Assembly: GCA_031425655.1 (NCBI GenBank)
Contig: JANPJS010000150.1
Span: forward strand, 1 to 42,290
Source of the DNA: Abditibacteriaceae bacterium
Lineage (GTDB): Bacteria; Armatimonadota; Abditibacteriia; Abditibacteriales; Abditibacteriaceae
Direction: 5' to 3'
DNA length: 42,290 nt
Translations under genes and position numbers: made by a program
The notes under the pieces: generated by a model
The model's input: the letters and a program-made list of their open reading frames with translations, nothing else
The model's database searches: none
What the model was told of the DNA's origin: nothing
Shown here: positions 8,258-10,992 of the stretch, in pieces
Numbering within the stretch: the first letter of the stretch is position 1
How the letters are laid out: each line of letters opens with the position of its first letter

Positions 8258-8904
8258 GTCGCGTTCAACTCCGAAAGCGAAATGGAATCGTCTTCATAAA
8301 GCCAGCGCTGAAAATTCGCTTTGCGCCCCGGCCATTCGCTATCGAGCATCGAAAACCACGCCGTGTCGCGGTTTTCGCCCTTCACGACGAGGTGTTGGCG
8401 AAACAAGCCTTCATATTGAAAACCCAGCCGCAACGCCGCTTTTTTGCTGGCCTCGTTACGATTGTTGCACTTCCATTCAGCGCGCCGATAGCCGAGTTCA
8501 TCGAACAAATAACTGAGCAGCAAAAACACCGATTCCGTATTGACTTTGGTGCGCTGCACAATCGGCGCATACCAAACGTGGCCAATTTCGGCGCGTCCGC
8601 ATTCCGGCGCGAGGCTCATCAGCGACAGATTGCCGACGCGATGCTGCGTTTTCTGCTCGGTAACCGTATAAAACAGCGGCTCCGCACCGTTCTGCATCGA
8701 AAACAGCCAATCGCGCATGGCATTTTCGCTTGCGAACGGCCCATACGGCAAATAATCCCACAACGCTTCGATTTCGGGTGCGCCGTGCGTCACCGCATAT
8801 AATTGGGCAGCATCGCGCGCGGCGTCCAACGGCGAGAGAGAAACGAACTCGCCGACGAACGCGCGGCGCTGCGGAACAGGCCAACTTTCGGGAAAAATGC
8901 TCAT
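8254..8904 (-). CDS. GNAT acetyltransferase, RimJ/RimL family
   Basis: AEIGHVW, LGYRRAEWKC...N..S...A.RLGF.YEG.FRQH; 4-nt overlaps with bioF and bioD. Confidence 0.88.
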   Translation of the reverse strand: MSIFPESWPVPQRRAFVGEFVSLSPLDAARDAAQLYAVTHGAPEIEALWDYLPYGPFASENAMRDWLFSMQNGAEPLFYTVTEQKTQHRVGNLSLMSLAPECGRAEIGHVWYAPIVQRTKVNTESVFLLLSYLFDELGYRRAEWKCNNRNEASKKAALRLGFQYEGLFRQHLVVKGENRDTAWFSMLDSEWPGRKANFQRWLYEDDSISLSELNAT

Positions 8905-10133
8905 AATCTTACAGCCTTGCGCGCTTCGCTGAACGCGGCCAGCGCGAAGGCGATTTCTTCGTGTGACAGCGCCGCGCTTGCTGTCACACGCAAACGGCTG
9001 CTGCCAACGGGCACAGTTGGCGGACGAATCGCCGGACACCACACGCCGCGTTCGCACAATGCCGCGCTTAACCCAACAGCCGCTTGCGCGTCGCCAATAA
9101 TCACAGGAATAATCGGCGACGATTGCAAGCGCGCCTCAAAACCCAACTCGCGCAGACCATTCGCTAACTTTTCAGTTACTTCGTGCAGGCGCACACACCG
9201 CTGAGGCTCGCGCCGCACGATTTCCAACGCTTTGAACGCGGCGCCACACGAAGCGGGCGCTAATCCCGTCGTGTAAATAAAAGGCCTCGCGGCGTTAATC
9301 AACCAATCAATCACCACGCGCGAACCGGCGACGAAGCCGCCCTGCGCGCCCAGCGCTTTGGACAGCGTGCCGACGAGGATGAGGGCCGGGTGCCCTCTGG
9401 GTAGGAGATGAGGGATGAAGGATGAATAAGATGCGCTATAATCGCTACTTGACGCCATTGGGCCTTGCGCCGCAGGCGCTTCTTCATCCCTCATCCCTCC
9501 GCCCTCATCCCTCGTCGTTCCCATGCCATGCGCATCGTCTAAAATCTGCACAGCGTCGAATTGCGCCGCAATTTGCGTCAATTGCGGCAAATCAGCTCCA
9601 TCGCCGTCCATTGAGAAAACAGTGTCGGACACGATGAAAAAGCGTTCGTTGCGCCGTTTTGCAGCATAGATTTTCAATAATTCGCGCAGTCGTTCGGGCG
9701 ATGAATAATAGCGCACAATCGCGCCGTTTGCGCTCGCCAGACGGCAGGCATCAATCAGCGAGGCGTGATTGCGCTTGTCGCAAAACAGCACGTCGCCACG
9801 CCGCGCCAACGACGAAACGACGGCTAAATTCGCGTGATAGCCGGACGGAAATACCAGCGCCGCCTCGCACTTTTTATAAGCGGCCAATTCGCTTTCGAGC
9901 CGCGCGTGCAGTGTCGTGTGGCCACTGACGAGGCGCGAAGCTCGCGCTCCGGCGCCAAACTCGCGCACCGCCGCGCACGCCGCTTCGATCACTTCGGGAT
10001 GCCGCGCCAGACCCAGATAATCGTTGGAAGCCAAATCAAGCGCACCGTCCGGCACCGCGCGCAAGCAGCGTCGCATCGAAGCCGCGTCTTTTTCGGCTAA
10101 AGCAGCGTGCAGTTGGTCTTCAAACGCAGTCAT
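8901..10133 (-). CDS. bioF: 8-amino-7-oxononanoate synthase, carrying an in-frame palindromic insertion
   Basis: SNDYLGL, GARASRLVSG, NHASLID, FSMDGD, DDAHG, GTLSKALG (PLP lysine), AIRPPTVP. Confidence 0.93.
   Translation of the reverse strand: MTAFEDQLHAALAEKDAASMRRCLRAVPDGALDLASNDYLGLARHPEVIEAACAAVREFGAGARASRLVSGHTTLHARLESELAAYKKCEAALVFPSGYHANLAVVSSLARRGDVLFCDKRNHASLIDACRLASANGAIVRYYSSPERLRELLKIYAAKRRNERFFIVSDTVFSMDGDGADLPQLTQIAAQFDAVQILDDAHGMGTTRDEGGGMRDEEAPAAQGPMASSSDYSASYSSFIPHLLPRGHPALILVGTLSKALGAQGGFVAGSRVVIDWLINAARPFIYTTGLAPASCGAAFKALEIVRREPQRCVRLHEVTEKLANGLRELGFEARLQSSPIIPVIIGDAQAAVGLSAALCERGVWCPAIRPPTVPVGSSRLRVTASAALSHEEIAFALAAFSEARKAVRL
9372..9516. repeat. GATGAGG-heptamer palindromic element inside the bioF coding sequence
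   Basis: gacgaggatgagggc...gatgagggatgaa versus ttcatccctcatccctccgccctcatccctcgtc; translated as RDEGGGMRDEE...SSFIPH. Confidence 0.82.
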
Positions 10134-10140
10134 GATTTTG

Positions 10141-10274
10141 TCTCTCGTCCTGCCCAAAGGGCACCCGACGCAAAGGCGCAAAGAAGACGTTAAATAAGGG
10201 TTTTGGTGGAAAAAATAATATCTTCCAAATCCTCTTTTACCGTCTTCTTTGCGCCTTTGCGTCTTTGCGAGAGA
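10141..10274. repeat. CGCAAAG(A/G)-armed palindromic element with a 20-bp insert in its left arm
   Basis: Right arm tctttgcgcctttgcgtctttgcgagaga; same family as 23955-24070 and 39923-39982. Confidence 0.82.
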
Positions 10275-10275
10275 T

Positions 10276-10992
10276 TTAATGCTCCGGCGGCTGCCAATCC
10301 GGCACCTGATCTTCGGGAACGGCGCCGTAAAGCGCGGTTTTGCGCCCGCTGCGCAGCGCCCAGCCGGGTTCGCCCCACGTCCAGTGCCACCACTCGCCGG
10401 GGAAATAAGTGAGGCCGGTAGCTTCTAAAACATCGCGCAGCAGCGCACGATTTCTGATGGCGATTTCGCTTAAACCTTCGACGAACATCGGTGCGCTGTC
10501 CCAACCCAGCGCGTGCGGCGAAACCATGTCGAGACGCTCGCCGTTTTCGTCCAGAATGCTTAAATCAACGGCGCCGCCCGTTGTGTGCGGCGGCGGCGTG
10601 TCCCAAATCGGCGGCGCGGAAAACACGTTGATATATTCGGTCAGCAGCTCTTCGTCCCAGTCGGGATGCTTTTCTTTGAGTTCGGCCCGCGCGCGGTCAT
10701 ACATCAATTTTTGAATCGCGAAAGGCCGAAAAGCGCCGATAATCTGCAAATGCCAGCCGTGCGGCAGCGCGTCCTGCGCTTGTTGCAGCATATGCGCGAC
10801 CGACAAACGCGCCAAACCCGAACGCGGAAAATCGAAGCGCGGACTTTGCTCGGCCCAGCGCAAATCGGGGCAAACCTCGAAAATATCCACCAGAGGCTCG
10901 CCGTTGTCTTCGATGGCGATTTTGATTAATTCTTCGACAGGCTCGCCGTAATGCTCGATGATGGGGCGTTCAAACGCTTGCGTTTCGCTCAT
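10276..10992 (-). CDS. M15D D-Ala-D-Ala dipeptidase (VanX/DdpX-like)
   Basis: FRP, H.TGGAVD and EWWHW zinc-peptidase motifs. Confidence 0.85.
   Translation of the reverse strand: MSETQAFERPIIEHYGEPVEELIKIAIEDNGEPLVDIFEVCPDLRWAEQSPRFDFPRSGLARLSVAHMLQQAQDALPHGWHLQIIGAFRPFAIQKLMYDRARAELKEKHPDWDEELLTEYINVFSAPPIWDTPPPHTTGGAVDLSILDENGERLDMVSPHALGWDSAPMFVEGLSEIAIRNRALLRDVLEATGLTYFPGEWWHWTWGEPGWALRSGRKTALYGAVPEDQVPDWQPPEH

Follow-up and report, generated by a model that had tools for sequence, protein, structure and literature searches.

Two copies of a 20-nt sequence, one inside a bioF-like gene and one just upstream of it, lie in opposite orientations in the 42,290-nt stretch of DNA analysed here (the window). 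What is this sequence, and how has it entered two different palindromes? The first-pass annotation had proposed a micro-element that replaces 5 bp in one arm of each. Its account of the positions, the inverted orientation and the 18/20 identity holds, the copies forming inverted arms 741 nt apart (pair I6), as do the placement in one arm each of two different palindromes, the in-frame translation of copy 1 as LLPRGHP in BioF and the absence of target duplication at both copies. These are the only two matches in the whole window at ≤3 mismatches, and two matches were obtained in 0/100 shuffles. The 5-bp substitution (caaag in one case, ggagg in the other) is borne out by the opposite arm of each palindrome, which keeps the 5-mer, and by homologues throughout the source genome of the window (G000): the flanks of copy 2 show a 5-nt gap, CAAAG, in 19/19 matches, and those of copy 1 a 5-nt gap in 68/81 and a 12-nt gap, corresponding to one extra heptamer unit, in 13/81.

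Table 1. Features around the two copies of the micro-element, in window coordinates.
Feature	Position	Strand	Description
Micro-element copy 1	9387-9406	-	20-nt form, one hairpin-stem substitution, in frame inside bioF
Micro-element copy 2	10148-10167	+	20-nt form, just upstream of bioF start
Host palindrome 1	9372-9516	.	Heptamer-repeat arms and spacer, in frame in variable BioF loop; inverted-repeat pairs I4, I15, I21
Empty site CCTCC, opposite arm of host palindrome 1	9496-9500	+	GGAGG on the other strand
Host palindrome 2	10141-10274	.	Octamer-repeat arms; inverted-repeat pair I1
Empty site CAAAG, opposite arm of host palindrome 2	10263-10267	-	Read on the - strand
bioF-like PLP enzyme gene	8901-10133	-	410 aa, open frame; Pfam Aminotran_1_2, E 3e-49

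The names bioF and bioD are our reading of the predicted Pfam domains Aminotran_1_2 and AAA_26/CbiA, the latter encoded near the bioF-like gene. One point of the first-pass account needs correction: copy 1 is inside the gene and copy 2 outside it, upstream of the ATG (10133) by 15-34 nt and near where bioF orthologues start. The orthologues in three congeners are open frames of 380-382 aa from which the whole of host palindrome 1 is absent, and the loop that carries it measures 48 residues here versus about 15 in congeners. Two congeners (L006, L008) carry different, unrelated heptamer repeats in this same loop, which is thus a tolerant, repeat-prone and recurrent landing spot. The bioF-like gene is a bystander that tolerates the insert, and the finding of the element is incidental to bioF. 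A search of positions 9200-10400 against Rfam gave 9 matches, each of them to a miRNA-precursor model, located on the host palindromes and scoring far below gathering.

The sequence belongs to a large family, as the search of the genome and its relatives proposed in the first-pass annotation reveals. In G000, 318 matches to a 16-nt core are found at ≤1 mismatch, 261 of them exact, versus 0 for the reversed control and 2 for the shuffled control. The exact core is present in 44/301 genomes of the phylum, including 22/26 other genomes of the taxonomic family (at most 137 copies), with a maximum of 13 per genome outside that family. G000, G001 and G002 hold 261, 137 and 50 exact cores at 97, 85 and 93% completeness, respectively. 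In genus g2 the 16-nt core occurs in 11/13 genomes, although an 18-nt pattern had suggested near absence. Of six Chloroflexota-labelled genomes, five hold 63, 54, 63, 112 and 71 exact cores and one has 28. A scan of the collection gave at least 87 stretches with the element, labelled mostly Abditibacteriaceae and Chloroflexota, and there is no cyanobacterial record among the 80 listed; the assignment of G000 to Abditibacteriaceae relies in part on these labels. Verrucomicrobiota- and Gemmatimonadaceae-labelled genomes have 1-5 copies, and single copies in Rhodobacteraceae-, Bacteroidia-, Streptomyces- and Vicinamibacteria-labelled genomes were treated as chance. Among the matches listed in a k-mer screen of G000 there is no other family of this kind.

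This family also bears on the idea that the two window copies are recombination sites inverting the 5' part of bioF. Their inverted orientation and the 741-nt spacing are what this idea has in its favour. Pairs of elements 200-1000 nt apart number 7 in G000 versus 9.5 expected by chance (95% range 4-16, copies collapsed to 277 loci and placed at random); the bioF pair is most probably a coincidence of two repeats hit separately. The copies moreover differ at 2/20 positions, their flanks share no further symmetry, neither copy nor host palindrome 1 is present in the congeners and in G011, and a flip would split bioF with no alternative 5' end present. Four contig sets aligned over 8600-10800 gave 7 joints, none of them a strand change, in assembled contigs that drop rare alleles and with one set (X1) possibly from the same source, so that this result does not speak against an inverted allele; sets X2-X5, which hold only 0.05-0.06 of the words, were left out of habitat and strain claims. 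An invertible bioF segment, one of the readings offered at first pass, is highly improbable.

The element is composed of the invariant 16-nt core GCCCARAGGGCRCCCG, which has a 4-5 bp stem, a 3-nt loop and a short tail, preceded by 1-4 variable left bases, giving forms of 17-20 nt. Its two junctions are of different quality: the right one is sharp, information content falling from 1.57 to 0.18 bits, and the left one is ragged (1.3-1.7, then 0.25). Among 245 NCCT copies of G000 the first base is T in 130, C in 61, A in 51 and G in 3. Left 4-mers are of 33 different kinds, shortened forms included, in 161 contexts from about 1.66 Mb of Chloroflexota-labelled genomes (parts of G042-G045 and loci), and further left-end forms, shortened ones included, occur in other genomes of the taxonomic family. 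At the base of the stem, the top strand tolerates a T-A/T-G polymorphism. Which first base is present depends on the base that precedes it (permutation p 0.0045), A coming after C or T and hardly ever after a purine; positions -5 and +4 give similar values (0.01 and 0.0025), and host relatedness may explain this dependence. In G000 the second base of the insert equals the first base lost (C in 131/132 cases), and in the Chloroflexota and phage classes with a 5-nt gap the match holds for C in 6/8 and for G in 5/7, for A in only 2/9.

The alignment of filled with empty sites, also suggested at first pass, gives a modal value for the replacement. The 300 copies of G000 with enough flank reduce to 226 distinct flank pairs, 168 of which have an empty homologue and 58 none. 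The gap is 5 nt in 132 of the 168, 6 nt in 14, 4 nt in 7 and another length in 15, and mock windows used as a control had any homologue in 16/223 cases and a gap of 5 in none. Independent anchoring gave a net gain of 15 nt in 136/178 cases and of 14 nt in 26/178, the latter class being largely the 19-nt form. The G000 sites fall into 81 classes with 32 different lost 5-mers, the first lost base being C in 131/132 pairs, 80/81 site classes and 31/32 distinct 5-mers, in flanks with 29% C. The 42 Chloroflexota and phage site classes with a well-matched empty site have a best gap of 5 in 25, 6 in 12, 7 in 3 and 4 in 2; many of the gap-6 classes would be 5 with the first letter assigned to the host, and a few sites in other genomes of the taxonomic family read as 6-nt losses. 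In one Chloroflexota repeat, the commonest empty form has CATTG where filled copies have the element, and in another the 5-mers lost are G-first. The rule of a first lost C is thus lineage-specific and fails outside G000. No target duplication was seen at the copies examined.

The bacterial empty alleles are paralogous repeats and not true pre-insertion alleles; true orthologues were therefore sought in phages. Five viral contigs carry the element, and among tailed phages related to one another copies are present at 3/38 loci and absent from 35/38. The portal gene has the 20-mer in L144 versus CGTGA in L142; in addition to L137, eight more relatives are likewise shorter than L144 by 15 nt. At the second L144 copy, L145-L148 have matching flanks with GGCAG instead, which begins with G and shows again that the C rule is not universal. 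The 5-nt swap is thus seen directly and, together with the G000 pairs, supports the initial proposal that a very short sequence has been written with precision into other repeats by a constant 5-to-20 replacement with no duplication. The excision scar or recombinase site that had been suggested finds no support, the empty phage orthologues keeping an unrelated 5-mer and no half-site.

Copies in IMG/VR phage contigs are far denser than in bacterial hosts, with three in 8.4 kb of L137 and two in 6.9 kb of L144, which suggests bursts during passage through a carrier. The L137 protease gene contains a 72-nt palindrome with the element inserted in frame, absent from L138-L140 and L153: host repeats too jump into phage genes.

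Most copies lie in short tandem or palindromic repeats, and others in a tRNA gene and in phage genes. Several host-repeat families of G000 form arms around GxxExxY, DUF559 and Y1-transposase genes, which gives the element the look of a parasite on other repeats; the repeat family of host palindrome 2 itself flanks, as inverted arms, a GxxExxY (PDDEXK_3) gene at C143. As an observation in its own right, abundant repeats stand as inverted arms on either side of GxxExxY (PDDEXK_3) and DUF559 genes on contigs C143, C298, C215, C45, C54, C228, C126, C144 and C244 of G000. The same repeats also occur without a gene, an arrangement that resembles REP/RAYT pairs with other nucleases, and a literature search on this link gave nothing relevant. 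On many contigs of G000 lies a repeat with 32 occurrences and fixed flanks, which resembles a CRISPR repeat. Copies at G000 C281 near 18280 and at L119, in two genomes, have apparently hit the same motif of one transposase, which we take to be ISAs1-type. The tRNA-Arg(TCG) gene at G000 C61:602-690 (-), which belongs to a seven-tRNA array on a 4.2-kb contig, is interrupted by a copy between the D stem and the anticodon stem; the cloverleaf geometry implies that this copy would have replaced 5 nt starting at C.

A strict preference for hairpins, as first supposed, is not observed: over 79 reconstructed site classes the mean pairing is 0.40-0.66 with no peak at the lost bases and no fixed pairing position, and copies also sit in tRNA and phage portal genes. 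Strand bias relative to crude gene calls in G000 is likewise not detected, with 49 versus 44 copies between co-directional genes and 21 versus 24 inside long ORFs.

The copies do not all reflect separate insertions. In one host doublet family with 36 arm pairs, 23 are empty/empty, 7 mixed and 6 filled/filled, versus 19.5, 14 and 2.5 expected (p 0.003). In G000, 24 copies share one site class, and in G014 many copies are close inverted pairs. Many copies have spread with their host repeat or have been copied from arm to arm, which inflates the count. Some filled sites in the G014 loci L318, L324 and L339 seem to show a longer loss of host repeat, such as recombination between two neighbouring copies would produce. 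One could go further and suppose, on the same correlated arms, shared site class and close pairs, that the element has no mobility of its own and that a few old insertions were spread by amplification of host repeats and gene conversion. The 81 site classes of G000, the tRNA gene, the non-repeat phage sites and the different sites used in congeners, where the element lies in their own repeat variants, would however need many separate events; G001 loci align to G000 at 68-83%, mostly breaking at repeats. The phage orthologues contradict this explanation as a full one, which we consider improbable, and such spreading remains a contributor to copy number.

We favour, with a probability of about one half, a non-autonomous micro-element, similar to the small dispersed repeats (SDRs) of cyanobacteria, that would be inserted into DNA breaks in a cut-and-patch manner by an enzyme acting in trans. 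This putative enzyme would make two breaks in exposed DNA, 5 nt from each other. A polymerase would copy a short single-stranded template from the sharp end (CGGG, bottom strand), and rejoining at the far side would add an untemplated base and, in many cases, a single base that matches the target. T on the top strand is A on the other strand, the usual untemplated addition, and we take the excess of T at the first base as support for this last step. Several observations do not fit well: the one-base match to the target fails where the second base is A (2/9), the gap is 5 in only 25/42 Chloroflexota and phage classes, the presence of the same core and its two A/G variants in two phyla is a persistence that cut-and-patch does not account for, and the copy-rich genomes are not set apart by NucS, reverse transcriptase, topoisomerase IB, DUF559 or PDDEXK_3. 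More tentatively, and with less confidence than in the cut-and-patch insertion as such, a so far undescribed DNA-writing pathway might be common to Armatimonadota and Chloroflexota and active on infecting phages, exchanging an excised 5-nt segment for a fixed 16-18 nt hairpin plus an untemplated base with no transposase or reverse transcriptase of a known type.

Candidate enzymes were considered one by one. NucS makes 5-nt staggered cuts; its gene was found in 3/41 genomes, and in none of G000-G003. Topoisomerase IB is present in 20/41 genomes and does not track copy number; its match is partial in G000 (136-aa frame, C157:7865-8188), partial or missing in G001 and G002, and full length in most of the taxonomic family. 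Topoisomerase IA prefers C at -4, one base off the C observed here. DUF559 (28/41) and PDDEXK_3 (29/41) are too widespread to discriminate. As to the recombinase or reverse transcriptase genes bounded by the motif that were to be looked for according to the first-pass annotation, 0/6 Y1_Tnp genes of G000 have a copy within 400 nt, and reverse transcriptase matches are lacking in G000-G002.

In the main rival to cut-and-patch, the element would be a REP-like unit that a Y1/HUH transposase, of RAYT or IS200 type, moves in trans in single-stranded form. The bottom strand reads as the tetranucleotide CGGG and then a short hairpin whose loop is T-rich, much as REPs are palindromes preceded by a conserved tetranucleotide; six Y1_Tnp matches are present in G000, and no reverse transcriptase would be required. 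According to passages of one study, TnpA-REP cuts between C and T and requires a 3' C as the attacking end for strand transfer, which echoes the C rule (PMC8266576). This rule is however lineage-specific, the tag is neither GTAG nor CGTC, and, as just mentioned, none of the Y1_Tnp genes has a copy close by, any repeats flanking them being other repeats. Strand transfer by IS608 is not known to involve a variable added base or a 5-nt deletion, and neither would be expected of pure strand transfer. We regard this rival as possible but rather unlikely.

The asymmetry of the two junctions also brings to mind a minimal retroelement in which a tiny RNA is copied by target-primed reverse transcription, since a precise 3' junction, a variable or truncated 5' junction and a target deletion would fit both the asymmetry and the shortened left ends, and the T-A/T-G polymorphism tolerated on the top strand is in line with it. 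Such a process would call for a reverse transcriptase and a source RNA. PF00078 gave no match in G000, G001 and G002 and a weak, broken one in G003; 27/41 relatives have one, and it is missing from the richest carriers, in assemblies that are incomplete and where divergent reverse transcriptases could be missed. The best source-RNA match in G000 is 14/19, the disrupted tRNA aside, and no source was found among 68 tRNA/tmRNA calls, the rnpB candidate and the 16S-containing stretches. Given also the lack of sense bias noted above, this explanation is a doubtful one, well behind a Y1/HUH transposase.

Whatever the mechanism, the element is a very small mobile repeat that is real and stands well above chance, and its insertion leaves an unusually testable signature. 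To our knowledge, how elements of 20 nt move has been an open question since the cyanobacterial SDRs. What is added here is that the loss is fixed at 5 nt, that the junctions are asymmetric and that there are phage orthologues. Such measurable rules, namely the 5-nt loss, one sharp and one sloppy junction, the lineage-specific match of the first base and the before/after alleles in phages, constrain the chemistry and permit a target assay on a plasmid or phage. The net gain of 15 nt adds five residues in frame, so that protein loops are remodelled, as in BioF and the phage portal, and a tRNA can be broken. The element thus behaves as one of the smallest mobile elements on record, and no enzyme is known that moves it.

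A literature search, covering mostly open-access papers and their main texts, gave no description of the element. Comparison with known systems separates it from several of them. Unlike MITEs, it has an internal hairpin and no terminal inverted repeats, and its targets lose 5 nt with no duplication. Likeness to a retroelement fails on the lack of a PF00078 match in G000-G002, which are incomplete assemblies. With IS200/IS605 it shares the lack of target duplication, a subterminal hairpin and possibly a one-base choice of target, as in a guide mechanism, but it is 20 nt long, has no transposase, deletes target bases and adds a variable base. The likeness to REP/RAYT systems, as these appear in passages of PMC8266576, PMC3733652 and PMC3116915, lies in a short hairpin, a 4-nt tag on one strand, a high copy number and some copies in frame in genes. 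It differs from them by its foot (CGGG / NCCT, and no GTAG or CGTC), a shorter stem, a single unit in place of a self-doublet, the 5-nt target loss and the lack of a flanking RAYT (0/6 Y1_Tnp in G000). REP-like repeats are here the hosts of the element. A few REP families are nested in other palindromes, an example given in part of PMC3733652 being the GTAG-tagged GTAG-23 of T. roseum, and the origin of REP-like repeats is left open in the relevant passages of PMC3116915 and PMC6006769.

The first-pass statement that no standard feature type describes the element is roughly right, with the qualification that the cyanobacterial SDRs are a precedent. Elhai and colleagues reportedly described, in 2008, SDR1-8 of heterocystous cyanobacteria, of 21-27 nt. 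The 17-20 nt of the present element is slightly under this size, and the high copy number (318 in G000) is alike. Its filled and empty sites show the same precise insertion into other short repeats, and it occurs in other phyla than the cyanobacterial SDRs, to which it is likened by description and not by sequence. Such small dispersed repeats are cited also in a passage of PMC2884548. SDR5, of 21 nt, is placed precisely inside HIP1 in passages of PMC5861425, PMC4390886 and PMC13756078; the first of these reports that, among HIP1-rich genomes, the SDRs were not found outside Nostocaceae, and the last, a 2026 paper, still calls the function of SDR5 unknown in the part concerned. As far as these passages go, the SDRs and the element have in common a length of about 20 nt, a dispersed distribution, precise insertion in other short or palindromic repeats and no known enzyme, and they differ in that SDR5 has one 8-nt target whereas the element has taken the place of at least 32 different 5-mers.
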